A stretch of DNA of 40,962 nucleotides from IMG/VR virus record IMGVR_UViG_3300017782_000052, one strand, 5' to 3'. The stretch's first letter is position 1, and each line of letters starts with the position of its first letter. The notes beneath the pieces were generated by a model. The model was not told the origin of the DNA and searched no databases. It worked only from the letters and a program-made list of their open reading frames with translations. The DNA is from a virus. Made by a program: the position numbers and the translations under genes. Below, piece by piece: positions 17,697 to 40,284 of this stretch.

Positions 17697-17715
17697 CTAA
17701 TGTTGTAACTTTAGA
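17697..17715 (-). promoter_or_regulatory. Copy B of the conserved motif; candidate phage promoter ahead of the structural genes.
   Basis: Minus strand reads TCTAAAGTTACAACATTAG. It overlaps the RNR stop codon (the TAA inside the motif) and lies 16 nt before the next ATG. Confidence 0.45.
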
Positions 17716-19609
17716 TGTCTACCAACTCACATGCACCTGCTGTACAGGCTAATGTTTGGCTACCAGAAGTAGTATCTTCCTTCTCATACAGGGATAAAGC
17801 AGTCCAGTCAATAGCTTCAGGCATCTGCTTTTTAAATTCCTCGTACTGTTCCTTGTCAATCTCTTGATAGGGAGCTTGAGCATACGTGTGGTCACTGTGT
17901 GGTAAGAACGATATACCTGAACATATGTCAAAGTTCTCGTAGACCCATGCACCTACTGCCATCCACTCTGCATCCTTAACTGTAATAGTTACTGATGGTT
18001 TGTGTTCACACCAGTTGAGTGCATAGTTCTTCCACAGTTCTAGCTGTTGTAGTGCAGTCATATCGTTACGAGTAACAGCACCAGATGGTGACTTAGTAGG
18101 AAAGCTAAACACTGTAGTAGAATCAGGCTTCATCACACACGGTTCAGCAGGGATACCACTGTCCTTCATAAACTGTGTTAGTGGGTCTTTGTTATCGCCA
18201 CGTACAGTGCGGATGTAGTACTCACTGTGTCGTGCATGAATACCTGAAGCTGTATCCGTTAACTGTGATACAGTACCTGATGGTTTGACACAAGTAATAG
18301 CAGCAGAAGTAGGTACACCTAGTTTGTCAGCATAGATACGGTTGACATCAACGGCATGTTCTTTTAATTTTTTCAACCATATTGAACTGTCGGTAGTCTT
18401 AGATAGTAAGTAGTTATCCATGATACCTGTTAGTGATACACCAAGCAGACGCTCTTCTTCTGTATTCTTCTGCCATATCTTACGTAAGTAAGGCATCTTA
18501 GTAAAGGTAGACTGTGCTGTACCAAGGATAGTAGCTATTCGTACCTTACGGCGTAGGCTTTCTAGGTCATCACCGTGCCTAACAACCACCTCTGTTAGAT
18601 TACAGAATTGATAAGGGCGAAGGATAATCTCAGAACAAGGGTTAGTTCCCCACTCATGTCCTGTCTCTCTACGTCCATTCATCTTAACGTGCTTGTCTGC
18701 TGCTACACGTGAGAAGATACCACGTTCACCAGACTTAGATTCTACAAGAGACAACCACTCACGCATGAACCCTTCCATATCAGGCTTATCTGTGTAGGCT
18801 ACAGAGTTATTAGCCAACGCACGTTGACCCTCGTTCTCCCACCATTGACCTGACTTAGCGTGTGCCATGCGTCCGTCACTAAGGTTAGACAGGCTAATCA
18901 TAGCTGAACGGCGAACACCACCCACTACCACAACCTCACCAATCTTACACATAATGTCGTGACACTCAATGCTGGTCAGCTTACGTCCTGCTGCTGCCTT
19001 AAACTTATCTACCACAAAGTTAAACAAGTCATTCAGTGGTTCAGGGCCACTAGCCCTACCACCAAAAGTCTTGAGCCTAGCACCTGCTGGCCTGATCTTA
19101 GACAAGTCCCACTTAGGAATGTCACCTGAGTACAGGTGTGATAGCAGCTTATGCAATGCCCTAGCCCAGCCTTCCTTGCTGTCCTTGACTGAAATGATGT
19201 CATCACTTATTTCTAGTGTATCAGGTACATCAGGAAGCTTGGCAATAGACTGACGTTCTACACTAAAGCCAACACCAGTACCACACAGTAGAATAAACAT
19301 AGCCTCATCAAAGGCACGTATGTGGTCTACTGGCAGGTAGCTACAGTTGTAGATGCAGGTGTTGTCACGGTCTGCTGCTACCCCTGCTGTCATCAAGGCT
19401 CTCATGCTGGGCATAACTTCAAGGTTGAGAATAGCTTCCTCAATTTCTTTTAGGTCTTTAGCAGGTAGGCCAGTGGTAGCAATGTAATTGATGTATCGTT
19501 GTACTGTCTCAGGCCAAGTCTCTCGCCTGTTCTCATCCTCTAACCATCGTGCGTACCTGCTAGTAGCAATAAATGTTTGGTAGTCTGTTGGTAAGTAGTT
19601 GCTACTCAT
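17711..19609 (-). CDS. Ribonucleotide reductase catalytic chain; probably class II-like (NrdJ-type), since I saw no beta-subunit gene in the genome.
   Basis: 632 aa. It contains TNPCSEIIL (the NPC.E catalytic-Cys motif of class I/II RNRs), GTGVGFS, and a C-terminal cysteine pair, CTAGAC. Confidence 0.75.
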   Translation of the reverse strand: MSSNYLPTDYQTFIATSRYARWLEDENRRETWPETVQRYINYIATTGLPAKDLKEIEEAILNLEVMPSMRALMTAGVAADRDNTCIYNCSYLPVDHIRAFDEAMFILLCGTGVGFSVERQSIAKLPDVPDTLEISDDIISVKDSKEGWARALHKLLSHLYSGDIPKWDLSKIRPAGARLKTFGGRASGPEPLNDLFNFVVDKFKAAAGRKLTSIECHDIMCKIGEVVVVGGVRRSAMISLSNLSDGRMAHAKSGQWWENEGQRALANNSVAYTDKPDMEGFMREWLSLVESKSGERGIFSRVAADKHVKMNGRRETGHEWGTNPCSEIILRPYQFCNLTEVVVRHGDDLESLRRKVRIATILGTAQSTFTKMPYLRKIWQKNTEEERLLGVSLTGIMDNYLLSKTTDSSIWLKKLKEHAVDVNRIYADKLGVPTSAAITCVKPSGTVSQLTDTASGIHARHSEYYIRTVRGDNKDPLTQFMKDSGIPAEPCVMKPDSTTVFSFPTKSPSGAVTRNDMTALQQLELWKNYALNWCEHKPSVTITVKDAEWMAVGAWVYENFDICSGISFLPHSDHTYAQAPYQEIDKEQYEEFKKQMPEAIDWTALSLYEKEDTTSGSQTLACTAGACELVDI

Positions 19610-26137: not shown

Positions 26138-26155
26138 CTAGGATGTAACTTTAGA
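26138..26155 (-). promoter_or_regulatory. Copy C of the conserved motif; candidate phage promoter immediately after the RNAP gene (phi1.1-like position).
   Basis: Minus strand reads TCTAAAGTTACATCCTAG. It starts 2 nt after the RNAP TGA and lies 35 nt before the SSB ATG. Confidence 0.45.
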
Positions 26156-26157
26156 AA

Positions 26158-27807
26158 TCACGCAAAGAAATACTCTGATTGTAGTATCTCACGCAAATTT
26201 AATTCACCCCTAGCTGGTGGCACTGGTACATCTTCAGTACCTAGTACCTTGATAGCATGTTGCCTCAACTCTGTCAACACATCATGCTGCTCATACATAT
26301 TAACAAACTCCTCACGTAATACCTCAGACAACAATGGCATCATACTACTGTGTGTACCGTAGCTGTCGTGTACCATAGCAAAGTCTTGGATGCCTAGCTT
26401 GCTTGCCTTGTTGATAGTCTTGGTCATAGCTGACGCATCCAGACTGTGGATAAAGTTAGGGCTGCTGCCCAACCCTGTCCTCTGCCTGTTAACAGAGTTT
26501 GGTTTGTCTCTAGGAAAGGACAACGACACGATGCCCCCATTGATATGTGTCTTGATTCTTTTCTGCTGCACCTCACTGTATTGTTGTAACACTAACCATC
26601 CTGTAGGTGTGACCCACTCCATGTGCCTGTTCATCTGAGCATACACATCAGCCACATCTTTAATGTAATCCATCACCTTACGTGCTGATACAATTACCTC
26701 ACTGATTGAATCCCATACGTGACCAGCTAGGTAATTGGATGCCTCAAACAAATCATCACCGAATGGGTTAGGCTCACCACCATCTATCTTCTCACGCATA
26801 GCTTCCTCTATGTAACCACGACAGGCGTGGCGTGTACCACTGTAGGGTACGATCATTACTGGACGCTTGGCAAGCTTCCTGTCTACGCCAAAGGCCAAGC
26901 ACTTACGTGCTAGTTCTGTGTCGTCCTGCTCCACACGTGCGATAGTCTTGTCTGCCACCTGTGTGTAGATGTCTTGAGGTATACCTGATGGTACTAAGTT
27001 AGTAGCAAGGCCACCCTGCCTGTCCCGCAGTATGGCAGAGAGGTGCTGTAGCCCATTGCAGCTACCATCTGCTGACACAGGTAGGCGTGTCTCATACCCC
27101 CAGCTATGCTTCATCAGGCCTGACATCTCGTAGCACCATGCCAAGAACTGAAATGGTTTGTCTGCCTCAAGCCAGACCAAGCACTCGTATGGGTTGGACA
27201 CAATGCGGTGCGCCCACATCTCTGCGTACTCCCATGCCCATGTCTCACGCTGGTCTAGTGTAACCTTGTCGTTACCGTACAGGTTGGCACCATGAATACA
27301 CAACCATCGTGCATCGTCCCAGCTATTGATAGCCATAGGGTAGCCAAACTCTAGCAGTGCCTTACTCCAATCGGCAGACTGAGGTGAGAGGAACGTGCTG
27401 CTTGCATACTTGCGAGAACGGAAGTCGTTCTGCCACACATAATAGAACTTGTCATACTTAGAAAACTGTTCTGCTATCTGTAGAGTACGCTCTACTTGTA
27501 TGCGCTTGCTCACGCTGCGGTTGTTGAGAGAGTAGATGTGATTACGCTTGCGTGACCATGCACGAAAGTCATCCCTCTCAGCCTCAGTCAACTGCTTGGG
27601 GTCACGGTCAAAGGGATACTCAGGTAATGGTATATCCTCTTTGGCTGGTAGCTTACCCCACTCATGTCCGTTGTCCCATATGGTACGCATCACCTCAAGC
27701 AATGGCTTGTTGATACGCCACTCTGTCCGTTGCAGTGTGTTAAGACAGGCATACTCTTGGCTCAAGTCTTCCTGCTTTAGTCTGCGTAAGTGTGTCTTCA
27801 AACTCAT
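26158..27807 (-). CDS. Single-subunit (T7-like) RNA polymerase, C-terminal part: thumb, palm and fingers (549 aa).
   Basis: NTLQRTEWRINKPLLEV (T7 NIAQNTAWKINKKVLAV), DGSCNGLQHLSAILRD (T7 DGSCSGIQHFSAMLRD), RPVMIVPYSGT, PNFIHSLDAS, VHDSYGT (T7 IHDSFGT), and the C-terminus LQSEYFFA (T7 LESDFAFA). Confidence 0.92.
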   Translation of the reverse strand: MSLKTHLRRLKQEDLSQEYACLNTLQRTEWRINKPLLEVMRTIWDNGHEWGKLPAKEDIPLPEYPFDRDPKQLTEAERDDFRAWSRKRNHIYSLNNRSVSKRIQVERTLQIAEQFSKYDKFYYVWQNDFRSRKYASSTFLSPQSADWSKALLEFGYPMAINSWDDARWLCIHGANLYGNDKVTLDQRETWAWEYAEMWAHRIVSNPYECLVWLEADKPFQFLAWCYEMSGLMKHSWGYETRLPVSADGSCNGLQHLSAILRDRQGGLATNLVPSGIPQDIYTQVADKTIARVEQDDTELARKCLAFGVDRKLAKRPVMIVPYSGTRHACRGYIEEAMREKIDGGEPNPFGDDLFEASNYLAGHVWDSISEVIVSARKVMDYIKDVADVYAQMNRHMEWVTPTGWLVLQQYSEVQQKRIKTHINGGIVSLSFPRDKPNSVNRQRTGLGSSPNFIHSLDASAMTKTINKASKLGIQDFAMVHDSYGTHSSMMPLLSEVLREEFVNMYEQHDVLTELRQHAIKVLGTEDVPVPPARGELNLREILQSEYFFA

Positions 27808-28601
27808 TTGCGCCTCACTATAGGTAGTTCATCTATATCGTGACCATGAAACCCACCACCCTGTACATCTGTCCAGTCTTTGGGTGGTACTATGCAGGGT
27901 AGATAGCGTGGCCTTGATACTTCCATGTATTCGTTGAACGCTTGGATAAACTCTAGCGTACCATCAGTAGGTTTAACGTAGGTAGCCCTGCGTTTACGTT
28001 CAGTCTGCTGTGTGTCCAGCTTAACAATACCTGTGTGCTGGATGATGATGTCCACCATCTTAAATCCTACATGCACACGCTCTGACTTTAGCCATGCTGA
28101 TTCTTCGTACCCATCCTTGTTCATCTTGTGTGTCAGACCGTAGCGTCTAGCACCATAGGCTTTCTTCATAGCCTCTTTGATTGTGTTCTTTGCTACACCA
28201 CCTTCTGCGTGTACCCATCTGTCTAGTCTATCCTGCATCTCAATGTTAGTACCAATGGTACGTGCCACATGCAGCAGTGTGTTCTTCCTGCTGATGCTGT
28301 CAACCAACGACACCACTGAGAGGTAGGCTACCTGCTCTGCATCCATATCCCTGACACGCTTCCATGCTATGTCTCTTGATGGATTGCTAGGGTTGGCTAG
28401 GTACTGTTCTATACCCTGTGCTACCTGCCCCACAACTGTACCCACAATGGCTCTACCATGTGGCAGGTGTGATTCCCTACCCTTTTCAATGGCCTTGTCT
28501 CTGGCCTTCCTGAAGCGATTAACACCACCTGTCAGCATGTCTGCCTCAAGTTCAAGCTGGTGTTCAAATAGGTCTTGGTTAGTTTCTAAAGTTACAACCA
28601 T
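27804..28601 (-). CDS. Single-subunit RNA polymerase, N-terminal domain, encoded as a separate ORF (265 aa).
   Basis: GVNRFRK (T7 GEARFRK), ERVHVGFKMVDIIIQHTGIV (T7 DSIHVGVRCIEMLIESTGMV), and YLPCIVPPKDWTDVQGGGFH (T7 FQPCVVPPKPWTGITGGGYW). It ends ...ELPIVRRK with a TGA that overlaps the ATG of 26158-27807. Confidence 0.88.
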   Translation of the reverse strand: MVVTLETNQDLFEHQLELEADMLTGGVNRFRKARDKAIEKGRESHLPHGRAIVGTVVGQVAQGIEQYLANPSNPSRDIAWKRVRDMDAEQVAYLSVVSLVDSISRKNTLLHVARTIGTNIEMQDRLDRWVHAEGGVAKNTIKEAMKKAYGARRYGLTHKMNKDGYEESAWLKSERVHVGFKMVDIIIQHTGIVKLDTQQTERKRRATYVKPTDGTLEFIQAFNEYMEVSRPRYLPCIVPPKDWTDVQGGGFHGHDIDELPIVRRK

Positions 28602-28633
28602 GATAAGACCCCCTTTACTATATCTTTAAGATA
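28583..28633 (+). repeat. Inverted-repeat arm E, which pairs with 32309-32360.
   Basis: Plus strand reads tttctaaagttacaaccATgaTaagaccccc-tttactatatctttaagata. The reverse complement of 32309-32360 reads tttctaaagttacaaccTAgaCaagacccccctttactatatctttaagata. That is 48 matches, 3 mismatches and 1 gap. Confidence 0.9.
28585..28602 (+). promoter_or_regulatory. Copy E of the conserved motif, in the OPPOSITE orientation (plus strand) and overlapping RNAP codons 1-6. It is a candidate antisense or leftward promoter.
   Basis: Plus strand reads TCTAAAGTTACAACCATG. If it functions like copies A-D, it would fire into the early genes in antisense. Confidence 0.3.
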
Positions 28634-28784
28634 CGGTCAGCATCCCTGCTATACCAATGGTGAATACACCTGTTAACATAACTACAAATTGTATACCTGT
28701 TACTGATTCATAGTCACCTATCATACCTACTACTGCTACTGCTATCATAGCTACAATCCATACTATAAGTAGTACATCCATCAT
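28626..28784 (-). CDS. Small two-transmembrane-segment protein (52 aa), below the ORF-track cutoff.
   Basis: My translation is MMDVLLIVWIVAMIAVAVVGMIGDYESVTGIQFVVMLTGVFTIGIAGMLTVS. Its ATG overlaps the upstream TGA. Confidence 0.5.
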   Translation of the reverse strand: MMDVLLIVWIVAMIAVAVVGMIGDYESVTGIQFVVMLTGVFTIGIAGMLTVS

Positions 28785-32299: not shown

Positions 32300-32338
32300 A
32301 AGACCCCCTATCTTAAAGATATAGTAAAGGGGGGTCTT
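32300..32338 (-). terminator. Hairpin immediately downstream of terL and motif copy D; candidate terminator or attenuator.
   Basis: aagaccccc (32300-32308) pairs with gggggtctt (32330-32338), giving a 9-bp GC-rich stem and a 21-nt loop. On the minus strand it is followed by UAAGGGUCUUUAGG, which is not a clean U-run. Confidence 0.4.
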
Positions 32339-32360
32339 GTCTAGGTTGTAACTTTAGAAA
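32309..32360 (-). repeat. Inverted-repeat arm D (pairs with 28583-28633).
   Basis: See 28583-28633. This arm covers the last two terL codons plus the stop, motif copy D, and most of the downstream hairpin. Confidence 0.9.
32341..32358 (-). promoter_or_regulatory. Copy D of the conserved motif; candidate phage promoter after terL (phiOR-like position).
   Basis: Minus strand reads TCTAAAGTTACAACCTAG. The terL stop codon is the TAA inside the motif. Confidence 0.45.
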
Positions 32361-35586: not shown

Positions 35587-35931
35587 CTATTTCTTGAACA
35601 TCTTAGTAAGTTGTTGAACACCAAAGCTTGCAGCAAACACAACGCCTACGGCAGTCTTATAAAAATCTGGCATACTATCTAACGCCTCAAAGCCACGTTG
35701 AACAATGTCTTCGTGTCCTGTGAAGGCTAGTATCAGGGGTATGCTCACCAAAATTGTAAGCCATTCATCCTTCCAGCTTGACGCAGAAGCCTGTGCCATA
35801 GTCTGGTTCCACTCCATTTCACCAGCAGCAACTTTTTTTGCTACTGCTACTTTGGCTTTTTGTGTTTCAACCTTACCTTCCATCCATGTACTGGCTAGAC
35901 CAGCCACGGCTTGTACTACTCCTAGTATCAC
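35587..35931 (-). CDS. Putative holin (multi-transmembrane; reminiscent of the 3-TM holin family).
   Basis: A GTG start overlaps the upstream TGA, with AAGGAGAG 8 nt upstream. Hydrophobic segments are ILGVVQAVAGLAS, WLTILVSIPLILAF and TAVGVVFAASFGV. It contains an SSWKDEW motif and lies adjacent to the endolysin. Confidence 0.45.
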   Translation of the reverse strand: MILGVVQAVAGLASTWMEGKVETQKAKVAVAKKVAAGEMEWNQTMAQASASSWKDEWLTILVSIPLILAFTGHEDIVQRGFEALDSMPDFYKTAVGVVFAASFGVQQLTKMFKK

Positions 35932-36395
35932 TTTATACTCTCCTTAACAACCCACAGGATAATACCCAGCATTGCTAGTCCTAGTCCTATACATACTGCC
36001 CAATAAAAAGTTACAATACAGTTGTCAATAAATTGTTGTCGTTCTTTTTCCGCTTGCTTTTGTGCAGCAATTCTTTTACTACGTGCTTCTGCCTGAAACT
36101 TAACCCAATCCTGCCACAGTCCTGCCCTACCGTAAAGCTGCATAGCCTCACGTAGTTCGTTTTCCTGCTGCTTGATTTTTTCTAAAGCCATAAACTCTTC
36201 TAAGTCATTACCAGACTTACCGCCTACTTGGTTCCAGAAAGAATTTTTCTTTTTGTTGGCTCTAGATTGCAAAGTTTCTTTGGCATCTACGTATTGAGAG
36301 ATAGCCGTGCCAGCATCAACTAGTTCCTTACCATTGGCTAGAGTTTGCTTTATAATGGCAAAGGCAGCGTTAGCCGCCGCTAGTTCCGCTAACAT
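35928..36395 (-). CDS. Coiled-coil protein with a C-terminal transmembrane anchor (155 aa), hypothetical.
   Basis: ATG with AGGAG upstream. It has a long charged helical region followed by IVTFYWAVCIGLGLAMLGIILWVV near the C-terminus. Confidence 0.6.
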   Translation of the reverse strand: MLAELAAANAAFAIIKQTLANGKELVDAGTAISQYVDAKETLQSRANKKKNSFWNQVGGKSGNDLEEFMALEKIKQQENELREAMQLYGRAGLWQDWVKFQAEARSKRIAAQKQAEKERQQFIDNCIVTFYWAVCIGLGLAMLGIILWVVKESIK

Positions 36396-36405
36396 GGCTA
36401 TTCTC

Positions 36406-36609
36406 CTACAGTTTCATTAGTAAGGATGCTGCGAGGCCAACAACAATAACCGTTGACCCCATAATCATTGCTTCTAAACGCCACAGACGTTTGTCTAAGC
36501 CAGATAGTTTGTCTTCTACAGACGCATAACGTACTGCACATTCTTTCTCGTGTGCCTCAAGTTCCAAGGCTACACGCAACTCTGGGGTGACTTCCTGTGC
36601 CATCTTCAT
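36406..36609 (-). CDS. Small tail-anchored membrane protein (67 aa), hypothetical.
   Basis: It has a TAATG overlap with the upstream ORF and a C-terminal hydrophobic segment, MIMGSTVIVVGLAASLLMKL. Confidence 0.6.
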   Translation of the reverse strand: MKMAQEVTPELRVALELEAHEKECAVRYASVEDKLSGLDKRLWRLEAMIMGSTVIVVGLAASLLMKL

Positions 36610-37076
36610 TACCCTGCGATCTCCATGATTTCTATGTGACTAAAATTCACGTTTTCATGTAGTTCGTTGACTGCTATTGCATTTGCGCCAGCGGCGGCAT
36701 AAGACCGAAATTGCATTTTGATGGTTTTTGATGCTGTGGAGGTATTTGTATAAAACCAACAGGGCGAAGTTGTTTGTCTCTCTGAGTTGCTAAAAGAAGA
36801 TGTTTGGCTGTCTATGCCAAAGAACATATAGTTACTAGTTGGATCGCCTAACGACACGTTATCAACTAAACATCTAAAAGAGCCTTGTCCACTAATGTGA
36901 AATACTGATGAAATTCTCAACACGCTATCGGAACTTTTTGGAGTATAGTTAATAGTTGCAGTATCAGTAAAAGTTGTAGTTCCCTGAAGGTCATTTTTGG
37001 TTGTGTAATAAGATTTTACATGTCCAATTACAGACCCACTAGGAAGACTGCTTGATTGTAATCGTATTAATCCCAT
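36609..37076 (-). CDS. Fibre-module protein (155 aa), jelly-roll-like; a divergent member of the head-domain array.
   Basis: It ends ...VNFSHIEIMEIAG, similar to the F.G.L/I.G endings of its neighbours. It is beta-rich and S/T-rich and is the last gene of the array. Confidence 0.55.
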   Translation of the reverse strand: MGLIRLQSSSLPSGSVIGHVKSYYTTKNDLQGTTTFTDTATINYTPKSSDSVLRISSVFHISGQGSFRCLVDNVSLGDPTSNYMFFGIDSQTSSFSNSERQTTSPCWFYTNTSTASKTIKMQFRSYAAAGANAIAVNELHENVNFSHIEIMEIAG

Positions 37077-37082
37077 GTCTAG

Positions 37083-37595
37083 TTACCCCAGAAACTTTAT
37101 AGTCATATTGTTATGTGCGTTATTGCTTCCATAAATATCCCCAGCAACAAGATATGTGAGGTGAACATCTAACAAATCGTTTACTGCACATTCAACAATC
37201 GTTGATGCAGATAGATTTAACTCAGTACCACTGGCAAATAATGACCAAACTAGAGAAGCATTAACGTTGCTTGAATCGATCCCCTGATTGACACCATTTT
37301 TCCTTACATTTGTTCGGTGTCCGCCAGTCATACTTCTGGCAAGATAATTGAACGAAACCTCATAATACCCTGCTTTCGGACAAGTAAACTGACCAGTAGA
37401 ATGATCGTAGGCATTTGCAGTGTCGATGACTTCGTTGTTCCATATGAATATGCCAGTAGATGTCATATCGGTTGTCATATATGCTTGAACGAGAATTGGA
37501 TTGGCAAATCCCACACGACCATCACTATCAATGGTCAACGCTGTGTTGCTGTTGGTGGGATCTTGCAGGGTACTAACTTTAAGTATGCTTGTCAT
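37083..37595 (-). CDS. C1q/TNF-like head-domain protein (170 aa), putative receptor-binding protein.
   Basis: YDHSTGQFTCPKAGYYEVSFNY...VRKNGVN...TIKFLG resembles the C1q globular-domain pattern Y...TG.FT.P..G.Y.F.....v.L.kNG....FsGfLl. The N-terminus MTSILKV...LTIDSDGRV is shared with 37605-38096. Confidence 0.6.
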   Translation of the reverse strand: MTSILKVSTLQDPTNSNTALTIDSDGRVGFANPILVQAYMTTDMTSTGIFIWNNEVIDTANAYDHSTGQFTCPKAGYYEVSFNYLARSMTGGHRTNVRKNGVNQGIDSSNVNASLVWSLFASGTELNLSASTIVECAVNDLLDVHLTYLVAGDIYGSNNAHNNMTIKFLG

Positions 37596-37604
37596 ATCGC
37601 TATC

Positions 37605-38096
37605 CTATCCTATTAAGTACCCGCCAAAACCACTATAATTTGGAAAATATGCGCCAAAATTTCCTTTAATAGTGACTGTCTGATTTGCGGTAAGTTGTAT
37701 AACTTCACTAAAAGTTGATGACTGGTCTAGACTGGTAGATTCGCTGGCGTGCCAATAAAGAGAACCATCAAACGAACCGTCATCTATACTAATAAAAAAA
37801 TCAGAAGTGGAAGTCGTGTTATTAATATAAAGACGACCAAAGAAATGATACAACCCATCAATAGGTGCCACAAATTCGTGGTCTGTAGTGTTGTAATAAT
37901 TACCAATGTTGTAATCAACTGAAGTCAACAAACTAAGTTTTGTATTAGCGACAAAGCTTGTCCACGTTGTCGATGTTCCGTGAACACGAAACGCTGGTCT
38001 TGCAGGAGTAGTCACACGACCACTGCTGTCTACTGTTAATCCTGTGATGCCTGATGTGCTGTGACCGATCTGGTCTACGTTTAGTATAGATGCCAT
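37605..38096 (-). CDS. C1q/TNF-like head-domain protein (163 aa), putative receptor-binding protein.
   Basis: N-terminus MASILNV...LTVDSSGRV, then YYNTTDHEFVAPIDGLYHFFGRLY, with the C-terminus SGFGGYLIG. Confidence 0.6.
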   Translation of the reverse strand: MASILNVDQIGHSTSGITGLTVDSSGRVTTPARPAFRVHGTSTTWTSFVANTKLSLLTSVDYNIGNYYNTTDHEFVAPIDGLYHFFGRLYINNTTSTSDFFISIDDGSFDGSLYWHASESTSLDQSSTFSEVIQLTANQTVTIKGNFGAYFPNYSGFGGYLIG

Positions 38097-38105
38097 ATCA
38101 GTCTC

Positions 38106-38627
38106 CTATCCTAAGTGTGTGAATGTGACGTGTGAGTATAGAGCGGCAGTGTAAACATCATGGGCATTGTCCCTCTGAATGAATTTAAGAGTGTCATTTG
38201 CGTTAAGCAGAGCAGTTAGCGAACCGTGCCAACCACGTTCATTGTTTTGGAAAAACCTTTGGTAGAGAACGCCGTTTTTCAATAATTGGAAATCTGAACT
38301 TGTTGCGGCTTCAATTAATACTGAGAAGGAGGCAAAGTAGATACCTCCTACTGGAGCGGTGAATAACCCTGTACTAGTGTTGTAGTAGGAACTCGCGTTT
38401 CCATCGCCATCTTCCGCAATGACAGACATAGGCAATCCATCATTAATGTTATTGTTATGATAAACTGCCGTTTCATCACCTATCGCACGAATGTGGATGC
38501 GATTTGGCGTAAATACATTGCCAGTGAAAGACACATCTCCATCACTTTGTATGTTCAATGCTTCTGACGCACCAGTCTTAGAGTAAATGTTGTTTACATA
38601 TAATTTAGACAATTGTAAGCTCCCCAT
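38106..38627 (-). CDS. C1q/TNF-like head-domain protein (173 aa), putative receptor-binding protein.
   Basis: N-terminus MGSLQLS...LNIQSDGDV, then YYNTSTGLFTAPVGGIYFASFSV...QLLKNGV, with the C-terminus VTFTHLG. It overlaps the upstream gene by 23 nt. Confidence 0.6.
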   Translation of the reverse strand: MGSLQLSKLYVNNIYSKTGASEALNIQSDGDVSFTGNVFTPNRIHIRAIGDETAVYHNNNINDGLPMSVIAEDGDGNASSYYNTSTGLFTAPVGGIYFASFSVLIEAATSSDFQLLKNGVLYQRFFQNNERGWHGSLTALLNANDTLKFIQRDNAHDVYTAALYSHVTFTHLG

Positions 38628-39069
38628 TTACTGTAAGTACGACATTGTTATCTATTGTCAACGCACCAGCAATCATGCCCCGCTCTGACGCAGCAATGGT
38701 TGTGTTTGTTGACAGTGTGCCTGTGTTGATACGGATACCATTACGAATTAAATTGCTAGATACTTTACTAGCTGTGATTGTTCCATCGCTAACAGAACCC
38801 ACATCAAAGACATCTCCAAGAGCAACAATAAAGTCTATTGTGTCGCTAGTGGTTAGAGCCTCAGCAAATACAAGGTTACTGCCGCTGATTGTAAAGCTGT
38901 CTTGAGGAGCTTGAATAATACCGTTGAGAGATACGATTAAATGATTTGCAGTCTCTGGAAAGTATGCTGCACCACCTAGCGTAAGAGCGTAGGTGTCCGT
39001 AGCAGAGGCAGCAGGGAATGATAGTTTATTAAACCCACCGCCTACAGGTCTTTTTCCTATATATGGCAT
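38605..39069 (-). CDS. Fibre-like protein (154 aa) with an N-terminal anchor-type domain.
   Basis: MPYIGKRPVGGGFNKLSFPAASATDTYALTLGG...LIVSLNGIIQAPQDSFTISGSNLVFAEALTTSDTIDFIVALG has the same layout as the N-terminus of the wrap-around protein (MGYVGNQQTEGFSKI...TLTLSN...LFINNVRQEPTESYTTDGTTVNLVGY...DDIYVVYN). Confidence 0.6.
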   Translation of the reverse strand: MPYIGKRPVGGGFNKLSFPAASATDTYALTLGGAAYFPETANHLIVSLNGIIQAPQDSFTISGSNLVFAEALTTSDTIDFIVALGDVFDVGSVSDGTITASKVSSNLIRNGIRINTGTLSTNTTIAASERGMIAGALTIDNNVVLTVNGELTIV

Positions 39070-39240: not shown

Positions 39241-40284
39241 TTATAACTCTTTTTCTGCAATAACTTGGCTTACTTGCGTACCTTGATTTGCGCCGGGTGC
39301 GGTGGCAAATAGTCTTACTGAATATATAGACGCATCGCTGGTGGTTTCAGAAGAACCAGCACTTGTAAAACTGACGTTTGGAGTATCTCGCATTGCAACA
39401 GGCCAGAACATATTTAAGCGTCTTTGTGTTTGACTTGTTGTGCTATTTTGCCAAGCATACATATCTAGTGAAGCATCTATTTGATAATAATACCGCTGAC
39501 ACTTTGTAAGCGTAGTGCCGTAGTCCTCGTGTTCAAACGGCGTGGCTGTCTCGCCTACTTCAAACTGTACGCCTGTAATGTATAGAGTTGCACCAGAATT
39601 TTCAGGTAAATAAACACTGTTTGGGGCTAATCGGTATGTGCTAGAGGTAGTCCACTCATTTAATGTACCTGTCTCAGCGTCACTGCCAACACCTATTAGC
39701 CATTCGATTCTAGTTCCAAAACTGTTACTATCCCTTTCATTGCCGCCAAGGGTGGGGCCAGCCACAGTTATTGTTTTTTTCTCCCAAGTGTTTGCCGAAT
39801 CAATCGTGTAATTTGTATAGTAATAGTAAGTTGCAGTGCTGCCACCAAAACCGCCATAATGTGCGAACGAAAAACCATAAGTACCTGTGATACTACCTTT
39901 TACCCAAAACGACAAAGTACAGGTTTTAGCTGCTGATGTACCCCAGTCTAGGTGAAATGTGTTTTGTTTTTCTAATAAAGTATAAAACTGATGCCTGTTA
40001 CTTTCACTAGTTGGTTGTGCTGCTTGAGTGACTGTTGTTATTTTAGAAGCATATCTAAAGCCTTGTCCTAACGGAGCATCTTCAACTTGAGCGTGAGAAA
40101 AATCTCCGCCGCCAGAGCCATCTATATCTGATTTGAATCGATCTACAGAAAGATATGAAGCAGAGGTAGTTGCAGTACCCCCCGCCGCACCACGCTGCGC
40201 GACGTTTTGTGCGCCATTGAAAATCATATTTCTCGCGCCAGTATATTGTTCTTGCGAGGCTGGTAGTATCTTTGAAAGTGCCAT
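39241..40284 (-). CDS. Putative receptor-binding or tail-fibre protein (347 aa) with a lectin/jelly-roll-like core.
   Basis: ITGVQFEVGETATPFEHEDYGTTLTKCQRYYY resembles the vQlE.G..aT.FE.....EL..C.RYy motif I recall from many phage tail-fibre or host-specificity proteins. It has a TAATG overlap with the upstream gene. Confidence 0.55.
   Translation of the reverse strand: MALSKILPASQEQYTGARNMIFNGAQNVAQRGAAGGTATTSASYLSVDRFKSDIDGSGGGDFSHAQVEDAPLGQGFRYASKITTVTQAAQPTSESNRHQFYTLLEKQNTFHLDWGTSAAKTCTLSFWVKGSITGTYGFSFAHYGGFGGSTATYYYYTNYTIDSANTWEKKTITVAGPTLGGNERDSNSFGTRIEWLIGVGSDAETGTLNEWTTSSTYRLAPNSVYLPENSGATLYITGVQFEVGETATPFEHEDYGTTLTKCQRYYYQIDASLDMYAWQNSTTSQTQRRLNMFWPVAMRDTPNVSFTSAGSSETTSDASIYSVRLFATAPGANQGTQVSQVIAEKEL

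Follow-up and report, generated by a model that had tools for sequence, protein, structure and literature searches.

A T7-type RNA polymerase split between two genes in a T7-like podovirus and its relatives

The window analyzed here is IMG/VR record IMGVR_UViG_3300017782_000052 at its full length, a stretch of 40,962 nucleotides (nt) of viral DNA, and our subject is a T7-type RNA polymerase (RNAP) encoded within it as two open reading frames (ORFs), an N-subunit gene followed by a C-subunit gene. The phage is a T7-like podovirus with a 41-kb genome. A first-pass annotation of the same DNA had described an RNAP made from two coupled ORFs that meet at an ATGA junction, and this arrangement, with the lengths and coordinates of both ORFs, was confirmed on the minus strand (Table 1).

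Two genes for one polymerase

The N-subunit ORF terminates in ...ELPIVRRK at a TGA stop (27806-27804), and the C-subunit ORF reads MSLKTHLRRLKQEDLSQEY...YFFA from an ATG start at 27807-27805. The C-subunit frame is closed by a TGA eight codons before its ATG, which the first-pass annotation had also noted and which we located at 27831-27829. Pfam RPOL_N (PF14700) was recognized in the N-subunit ORF (5e-13, 49.6 bits against a cut-off of 30.1) and RNA_pol (PF00940) in the C-subunit ORF (2e-97). When the two products were joined conceptually, the N+C fusion aligned with T7 RNAP from end to end (phmmer against the PDB, E=3e-104), the N-subunit covering T7 residues 31-300 and the C-subunit residues 301-883.

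At the junction, ...PIVRRK/MSLKTH matches T7 L294-A-L-V-R-T299-H300/S301-K302, which places the cut at T7 ~299-301 and bears out the earlier estimate of about residue 300. The cut had further been assigned to a surface linker between the N-terminal domain and the thumb. We take the T7 N-terminal domain to extend to approximately residue 325, and the natural cut thus lies inside its last segment rather than in an exact linker. The site falls in a surface-exposed seam of T7 RNAP (PMC4299498).

Table 1. Features of the RNAP locus, with positions in the window
Feature	Position	Strand	Description
RNAP N-subunit gene	27804..28601	(-)	265 amino acids (aa), 30.2 kDa, pI 9.0; homologue of the T7 RNAP N-terminal domain, ~T7 residues 30-300
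RNAP C-subunit gene	26158..27807	(-)	549 aa, 63.6 kDa, pI 6.3; end of the N-terminal domain, thumb, palm, fingers, all catalytic motifs, specificity loop
ATGA stop/start overlap, 4 nt	27804..27807	(-)	N-gene TGA and C-gene ATG
Internal Shine-Dalgarno-like GTGAGG	27813..27818	(-)	Val-Arg codons of the N gene; GAGG core 5 nt before the C-gene ATG
Conserved N-subunit C-terminal tail	27807..27911	(-)	Residues 231-265, RPRYLPCIVPPKDW..GGG..LPIVRRK
Predicted β-hairpin, N-subunit 193-211	27969..28025	(-)	DSSP strands E193-201 and E204-211 (AlphaFold2 model)
DxxGR-type motif, C-subunit D128-F-R-S-R132	27412..27426	(-)	Aligned with T7 D421-W-R-G-R425
Motif A catalytic Asp, C-subunit D247 (= T7 D537)	27067..27069	(-)	T7 alignment; D247-G-S-C-N-G invariant
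Motif B, C-subunit K314...Y322 (= T7 K631...Y639)	26842..26868	(-)	K314, R315 and Y322 invariant
Specificity-loop equivalent, C-subunit ~410-440 (T7 739-770)	26488..26580	(-)	Alignment; predicted β-hairpin E413-422 + E425-434
Motif C His-Asp, C-subunit H480-D481 (= T7 H811-D812)	26365..26370	(-)	V479-H-D-S-Y-G-T-H invariant
Candidate phage promoter TCTAAAGTTACATC	26142..26155	(-)	2 nt past the RNAP stop; one of six same-strand copies
Antisense exact copy of the candidate promoter, TCTAAAGTTACAAC	28585..28598	(+)	Across codons 2-6 of the N-subunit gene

Both halves are intact, as had been claimed, and the catalytic residues, all of them in the C-subunit, align with those of T7 RNAP and are invariant in relatives. 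Besides motifs A and C, these include C-subunit R310, K314 and Y322, which correspond to T7 R627, K631 and Y639; D128, F129, R130 and R132 of the DxxGR-type motif are likewise invariant. The C-terminal YFFA corresponds to T7 FAFA. Two substitutions set the clade apart from T7 and are invariant in 33 C-half sequences: the DxxGR-type motif reads D-F-R-S-R clade-wide, with Ser in place of Gly, and motif B has Y-S-G where T7 has Y639-G640-S. An RPOL_N-type domain and an RNA_pol domain with motifs A, B and C are both present, as expected of the family of T7-like single-subunit RNAPs, but the single chain that gives the family its name is replaced by two ORFs in the window and in the whole clade described below. 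As judged from these alignments, the two-ORF RNAP is homologous to the T7-like single-subunit family, yet is not "single-subunit" in architecture.

Each half is predicted to be a competent folding unit. In AlphaFold2 models, the N-subunit reached a predicted local distance difference test (pLDDT) score of 80.7, with a high-confidence core at residues 7-230, and the C-subunit by itself reached a pLDDT of 86.7 with a predicted TM-score (pTM) of 0.83. The N-subunit model matched the T7 RNAP N-terminal domain in Foldseek with a query-normalized TM-score (TMq) of 0.74-0.76 and a root-mean-square deviation of 3.2-3.8 Å. Closest to the isolated model were the elongation-complex conformers of T7 RNAP (1MSW, 1H38, 8DH*), which account for the TMq of 0.74-0.76, while initiation and apo forms (1CEZ, 1ARO, 3E2E) gave only 0.43-0.46; this elongation-like fold could be a modeling bias or a real preference.

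The N-subunit holds the region aligned to the T7 AT-rich recognition loop and intercalating hairpin, and its own hairpin 193-211 aligns to the intercalating hairpin region (T7 ~227-245). The specificity-loop equivalent is in the C-subunit, and therefore both chains would contribute to promoter recognition if the enzyme works like T7 RNAP. The C-terminal tail of the N-subunit is among its most conserved parts, with P231, P235, C236, P240, W243, G248-250 and R263 invariant in 33 sequences. Its pLDDT is only 37-49 when the N-subunit is modeled alone. Because the tail is strongly conserved yet scores below 50 in isolation, these 35 residues probably anchor the N-subunit on the C-subunit.

Relatives, selection and the gene boundary

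The split is common to all close relatives recovered. A back-translated scan of IMG/VR found it in 80 of 80 related loci, at N-half identities of 45-99%. In a collection of 5.8 billion proteins, clustered at 90% identity, there were 102 N-half clusters with identities between 99% and 48%; those that are complete are nearly all 255-272 aa long, with a few up to 290. Among the best 120 C-half clusters (97-54% identity), the complete ones were all 546-554 aa and none was fused. JGI, ENA, Tara, Logan and NCBI assemblies all contain members of the split clade, a few of which are found on 10-47 contigs, and exact 265-aa N-subunit proteins occur on up to 21 contigs across these five sources. Thirteen contigs match the window at 98-99% identity, and CGC-AAA-TGA is the same in every one of them. 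Farther away, among 1.84 billion cluster representatives, the best N-half matches (46-33% identity) were almost all 255-281 aa long and ended at a common ...[LIVF][VIM][RK]xx position; below ~33% N-half identity, fused enzymes of 800-870 aa predominate.

Homologues of both halves were compared, as had been suggested with the first-pass annotation: close relatives are split at the same point, and the best matches listed from cultured or deposited phages are fused and at most 35% identical. The locus had no megablast match in 50,697 phage records. A tblastn search with the fusion matched 2,737 of these records, and the 40 best were all single-piece at ≤35% identity; two deep N-halves searched in the same way gave single-piece enzymes only, again at ≤35% identity among the matches listed. 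By these searches, the split clade contains no cultured or deposited phage, and it is widespread, uncultured and podoviral, and apparently marine. One member (L102; GCA_002691125.1, contig NZGW01000100.1, 45,238 bp), with a C-half 72% identical to that of the window, was binned in an "Alteromonas sp." metagenome-assembled genome. Together with members from Tara Oceans, this binning is a weak hint of a marine gammaproteobacterial host.

Two fused single-chain RNAPs lie in or near the clade, P0152 (L096, 1179-3551; 790 aa) and P0200 (808 aa). P0152, the nearest fused form by N-half, comes from a single Logan contig and has only 36-40% identical relatives in IMG/VR. A neighbor-joining tree of the N-domain united all split forms (bootstrap 69) and placed P0152 and P0200 within their clade at low support. 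The corresponding C-domain tree recovered a core split clade (bootstrap 93) and grouped two deep split members, L088 and L089, with the fused P0200 (60), the support for the whole being 53. These trees fit one ancient split, possibly with re-fusion in P0152 and P0200, or two independent splits at the same seam.

Selection was estimated by the pairwise Nei-Gojobori method between the window and 13 relatives. The ratio of nonsynonymous to synonymous rates (dN/dS) was 0.03-0.24 for the N-half and 0.07-0.21 for the C-half, and synonymous differences between members were saturated (proportion of synonymous differences, pS, 0.6-0.8). On these estimates both halves are under purifying selection and the split is old, having been kept long enough to saturate synonymous sites.

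The form of the junction varies across the clade. Both genes are complete in 51 loci: ATGA is found in 41 of these, a stop followed by 1 nt and ATG in four, TAATG or TGATG in four, an 11-nt overlap in one and TTGA in one. The last sense codon of the N gene is AAA, AGA, GCA or TCA according to lineage. Six loci have "TAA g" or "TAG c" ahead of a C gene that lies in the +1 frame and has its own AAGGGG Shine-Dalgarno sequence. The lineage with a 1-nt spacer has its C gene in the alternative relative frame, behind a Shine-Dalgarno sequence of its own, AGAAGGGGA. Deeper relatives, retrieved by exact-protein look-up, extend this range. A 1-nt spacer separates the halves in L092 and L093/94, a 3-nt spacer in L097-99 (three samples, where genes for a T7-type single-stranded DNA-binding protein (SSB), endonuclease I and primase-helicase follow) and a 58-nt non-coding spacer in L089-91 (three samples). 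In L088 (logan:SRR26280457_5401, 1703-2119) a gene for a 138-aa Dam-like DNA adenine methyltransferase (Pfam PF05869, 2e-15) stands between the N-half and a 580-aa C-half. Judged from this insertion, the N/C boundary of the L088 lineage is now an insertion-tolerant intergenic site. The C-halves of the deeper relatives nevertheless share a homologous start position (M..K..L..DLS.E...LN.LQ.T.WRIN). In this comparison, the junction is an ordinary, drifting gene boundary at which neither the frame relation nor the AAA codon is conserved.

What is conserved at the junction is a candidate translation signal. Within the Val-Arg pair 6-11 nt before the C-gene start, valine is GTG in 44 of 47 unique loci and arginine AGG in 43 of 48. 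Both are minority codons in this genome (GTG, 17.6% of Val; AGG, 16.7% of Arg), and at comparably conserved degenerate columns the commonest codon has a mean share of 0.61. Lineages without GTGAGG carry AGAAGGGGA before their own C-gene start. Such codon choice is the signature of a Shine-Dalgarno sequence selected within the coding sequence of the N gene, and the synonymous fixation of GTG-AGG therefore implies that initiation at the C-gene ATG is itself under selection. An overlap of stop and start and a Shine-Dalgarno sequence in the upstream ORF, the sequence features of termination-reinitiation, are both present, which makes translational coupling the predicted mode of expression.

No RNA structure beyond chance was found in the 121 nt around the junction (z=+1.21; 183 of 200 shuffles fold at least as well), and GTG AGG CGC AAA TGA contains no slippery heptamer of the X XXY YYZ type. 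Stop-codon read-through was considered separately and rejected: in the N frame the TGA is followed by GTT TGA, so that the C frame is unreachable, and relatives also use TAA and TAG.

Candidate promoters and genome context

The window is a complete, circularly permuted T7-like podovirus genome with all genes on one strand. From the large terminase subunit (TerL) the order runs through early small ORFs (32.3 to 28.6 kb), RNAP-N, RNAP-C, a gp2.5-like SSB and an endonuclease, and on through primase-helicase, DNA polymerase, exonuclease, ribonucleotide reductase, portal, scaffold, capsid, tail tube, internal virion proteins and fiber. As assigned with PHROGs, this order is colinear with that of T7. 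The ribonucleotide reductase (632 aa; PHROG 367, 1e-191; 17711-19609, minus strand) is encoded between the replication module and the structural module. A tail-fiber-like gene (39241-40284) and the terminase are separated by six ORFs in a row (35928-39069, minus strand), all of comparable size (154-173 aa). They may be an array of paralogous cassettes; the two that were scanned matched only PHROGs of unknown function.

The motif TCTAAAGTTACAAC occurs seven times in the window at up to two mismatches, against 0.48 expected. In the form TCTAAAGTTACA(A/T)C (also written TTTCTAAAGTTACAAC and TTTCTAAAGTTACAACCTAGCC) it has six coding-strand copies, and at four of these the stop codon of a large ORF comes just before; we infer that it is a phage promoter. 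The copy behind the RNAP gene is placed like phi1.1A after T7 gene 1. Related loci keep a copy there, in variants that differ by lineage.

The antisense copy at the start of the N-subunit gene is part of a ~54-nt inverted repeat (28583-28636 / 32306-32360) that brackets a 3.7-kb block of early genes and covers the RNAP ribosome-binding site and start codon. Even relatives whose N-half identity is only 55-70% retain its core GTAACTTTAGAAA, at synonymous sites too. From lineage to lineage, the antisense copy moreover covaries with the post-RNAP promoter variant (GTTACAAC, GTTACCCTC, GTACCCCTC, GTTCCCCT), at the cost of changes at RNAP residues 2-3. On this pattern, the copy may be a functional antisense promoter or operator by which the early genes and the RNAP would be shut off; alternatively, the inverted repeat may form a long-range RNA duplex.

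The early region opens with two sigma-70-like promoters (32194-32165 and 32054-32025, minus strand, 10 of 12 matches), with a phage-promoter copy (32345-32358) just upstream of them. This pair and the adjacent copy resemble the left end of T7, with its A promoters and phiOL. In a scan of 25.8-34.2 kb, the counts of sigma-70 promoters (23 against 16.5) and terminators (6 against 5.4) were near the shuffle expectation.

Interpretation and relation to known polymerases

Together, the relatives, the selection on both halves and the variable junction support the natural two-subunit enzyme, which was one of three explanations offered by the first-pass annotation. The intact catalytic residues, the predicted folding of each half, the T7-like gene order, the permissive 301/302 seam of T7 RNAP and the precedent of N4 RNAPII also speak for it. 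We consider it likely, with a probability of about 0.88, that this phage makes its T7-type RNAP as an obligate heterodimer from two adjacent, translationally coupled genes. Heterodimerization, activity, the coupling mechanism and the identity of the promoters are what we infer from the comparisons above. The N and C genes would be carried on one mRNA. Ribosomes that end the N gene at its TGA would reinitiate at the overlapping ATG, or fresh ribosomes would load there, helped by the GAGG Shine-Dalgarno sequence in the last N-gene codons, and such coupling would yield roughly equimolar synthesis of the two subunits. Non-covalent assembly of the chains would follow and produce the equivalent of single-chain T7 RNAP, with the conserved 35-residue tail of the N-subunit probably packed on the C-subunit. 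The heterodimer would recognize promoters of the TTTCTAAAGTTACA(A/T)C type and transcribe the middle and late genes, as T7 RNAP does. The split may have been kept because it is neutral after adaptation of the interface, or because it makes regulation possible.

Several points weigh against this interpretation. Heterodimer formation, stoichiometry and activity are all read from sequence. Engineered T7 splits at 301/302 gave ~530-790 arbitrary units (AU) of reporter, against ~2490 AU for the 179 split (PMC4299498). A naive split at this site is therefore costly, and the two-subunit reading assumes compensating changes at the interface. In the ATGA lineages, a low level of -1 slippage at CGC-AAA-TGA may also occur. 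Finally, the fused P0152 and P0200 lie in or near the split clade with weak support, so that there may have been more than one split, or a re-fusion.

Among other readings, an unlikely one is that the N-terminal domain acts as a separable, sigma-like initiation subunit. It would dock through its tail and, being untethered, rearrange or exchange at promoter escape; in the same reading, synthesis of the N-subunit, and through coupling that of the C-subunit, would be under feedback control by the enzyme itself, exerted at the antisense promoter in codons 2-6. If true, this would be a natural, self-regulating two-component T7-type transcription system.

Somewhat less probable is a variant with no obligate stable heterodimer, in which the C-subunit would be a core polymerase served by a separable N-subunit factor, possibly a transient one, with a role in initiation or regulation. 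The T7 N-terminal domain refolds massively at promoter escape, and the T7 conformers 1MSW and 1H38 are distinct from 1CEZ in the Foldseek matches. In line with a loose association, the C-half is predicted to fold well alone, the N-subunit core is modeled as an autonomous fold with a flexible conserved tail, and intervening sequence is tolerated between the halves in some lineages. Against it, the two genes are adjacent or at most one gene apart in the window, as in each relative with a fully recovered context, they are tightly coupled in most lineages, and no second N- or C-subunit paralogue was found in the window. The T7 N-terminal domain is also part of the RNA exit path in elongation, and permanent association is therefore favored.

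A programmed -1 frameshift or slip at the stop on CGC-AAA-TGA, with a ~94-kDa fusion as the real enzyme and the separate ORFs as by-products, is very improbable. A -1 slip on the AAA of the window or its near relatives would yield ...IVRRKMSLK..., a product colinear with T7 RNAP, and the stop codon could serve as a pause. However, the codon before the stop is AAA, AGA, GCA or TCA by lineage, and relatives use both relative frames, 3-nt and 58-nt spacers and even an intervening Dam-like gene. Neither a slippery heptamer nor a downstream structure was found at the junction (z=+1.21), and the conserved signal is instead one for initiation, an ATG with a constrained GAGG. As a conserved mechanism, the frameshift raised in the first-pass annotation is excluded by this variation of frame, codon and spacer.

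Its third alternative, a 1-nt sequencing or assembly error that turned AAAA into AAA in an ordinary single-chain RNAP gene, fares worse still and is excluded. One extra A would indeed join the two frames. The same junction is nevertheless present in the 13 contigs at 98-99% identity, none of the 80 related loci, drawn from many samples, lacks the split, which recurs in hundreds of independent contigs, and the exact 265-aa proteins occur in five assembly sources, while fused members are absent from the close clade (the N-half clusters and the best 120 C-half clusters). Equally hard to credit is a decaying RNAP pseudogene in a phage that relies on the host RNAP. A broken ORF is the usual sign of one, but dN/dS is far below 1 in both halves despite saturated synonymous divergence, the catalytic residues are all invariant, the promoter-like motifs are conserved, and further stops or frameshifts are absent from 51 of 51 complete loci. 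The least credible alternative is a split-intein "fractured gene" whose halves are joined by protein trans-splicing, which is known from marine metagenomes (PMC2677866) and might be read into the gene between the halves of L088: the ends abut on the T7 alignment with 2 residues unaligned, leaving no space for a ~100-aa N-intein and a ~35-aa C-intein, Hint-domain blocks are absent at the junction, and the L088 insert is a Dam-like methyltransferase, not a homing endonuclease or intein.

A full-size T7-type enzyme kept as two chains in a widespread clade would extend the natural range of such architecture beyond N4 RNAPII with its minimal N-terminal domain. The coincidence of the natural cut with one of five laboratory seams is an independent evolutionary validation of the bisection map. 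The ~100 sequence clusters amount to a library of fragment pairs that have co-evolved and could serve split-polymerase logic gates or resource allocators, for which current parts need added leucine zippers or inteins to associate well. The clade also offers a natural system in which to ask whether a covalent link to the N-terminal domain matters for refolding between initiation and elongation. In annotation, a standalone ~260-aa RPOL_N ORF or ~550-aa RNA_pol ORF met in a virome should not be taken for a frameshift error and "repaired".

The closest natural counterpart is N4 RNAPII, a heterodimer of gp15 and gp16 in which both subunits are required (PMC4496689). The view of the first-pass annotation that a natural split would be unusual holds for the position of the cut, which differs from that of N4, but not for the principle, for which N4 RNAPII is a precedent. 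In both systems, two adjacent same-strand genes encode non-overlapping parts of a T7-like RNAP. N4 gp15 (269 aa) comprises a truncated N-terminus, the thumb and DxxGR, and gp16 (404 aa) motifs A-C (PMC4496689). The DKRGR of gp15 is near its C-terminus, the chain ending ~30 residues later (structures PDB 6DT7/6DT8/6DTA). The N4 cut is thus at ~T7 455, and the cut described here, at ~T7 300, is ~155 residues upstream; thumb and DxxGR are in the first subunit of N4 RNAPII, whereas the thumb and DFRSR are in the second subunit here. The N-terminal domain of N4 RNAPII is minimal and the enzyme needs gp2/gp1 for specificity (PMC4496689), in contrast to the full-size domain here (TM 0.75 to T7). The N4 genes are 47 nt apart instead of overlapping as ATGA, and N4 is a 70-kb schitovirus with a virion RNAP, unlike the 41-kb T7-like podovirus of the window. 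Almost every virion-RNAP phage also encodes an N4-type heterodimer (PMC4496689). No giant virion RNAP was seen among the largest ORFs of the window (1160 and 1123 aa, an endolysin-domain protein and an internal virion protein), and no search was aimed at gp2. The heterodimers counted in a 2015 review were all homologues of the N4 enzyme, 24 of >500 (PMC4496689).

Engineered enzymes provide the second comparison. Segall-Shapiro, Meyer, Ellington, Sontag and Voigt (2014, Mol Syst Biol 10:742) bisected T7 RNAP with transposons in an unbiased manner and found five seams, all surface-exposed, at 67-74, 160-206, 301-302, 564-607 and 763-770 (PMC4299498, Fig 2B source data). Active in-frame splits in E. 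coli included those with residue 301 or 302 as the last of the N-fragment (PMC4299498), a seam that coincides with the natural cut at T7 299-301. Those splits were artificial, made in T7 RNAP itself and expressed from Ptac, and the authors went on with 67, 179 and 601; the natural split differs from them by a long co-evolution of its chains and by a coupled translation signal. For T7 RNAP that was nicked or split at 179/180 (Ikeda & Richardson 1987; Shis & Bennett 2013), the account in PMC4299498 has the fragments associating and active without a covalent link. The functional splits cited as precedent in the first-pass annotation stand, but the relevant site is 301/302 and not 179/180 (PMC4299498), the latter being inside the T7 N-terminal domain, in the refolding region, and of proteolytic or engineered rather than genomic origin.

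Single-chain T7-like phage RNAPs (Autographiviridae-type, T7 gp1) share with the enzyme described here the same domains and motifs, the FAFA-like end, the genomic position and a promoter, here a candidate one, right after the gene, but are one polypeptide of ~800-880 aa where there are two chains here. In the literature within our reach, which leaves out most subscription journals, we found N4 RNAPII and the engineered splits and no natural split at this site. N4 RNAPII is the only natural heterodimeric RNAP of the T7 family described so far, and what is new here is the position of the split, the clade that carries it and its scale.

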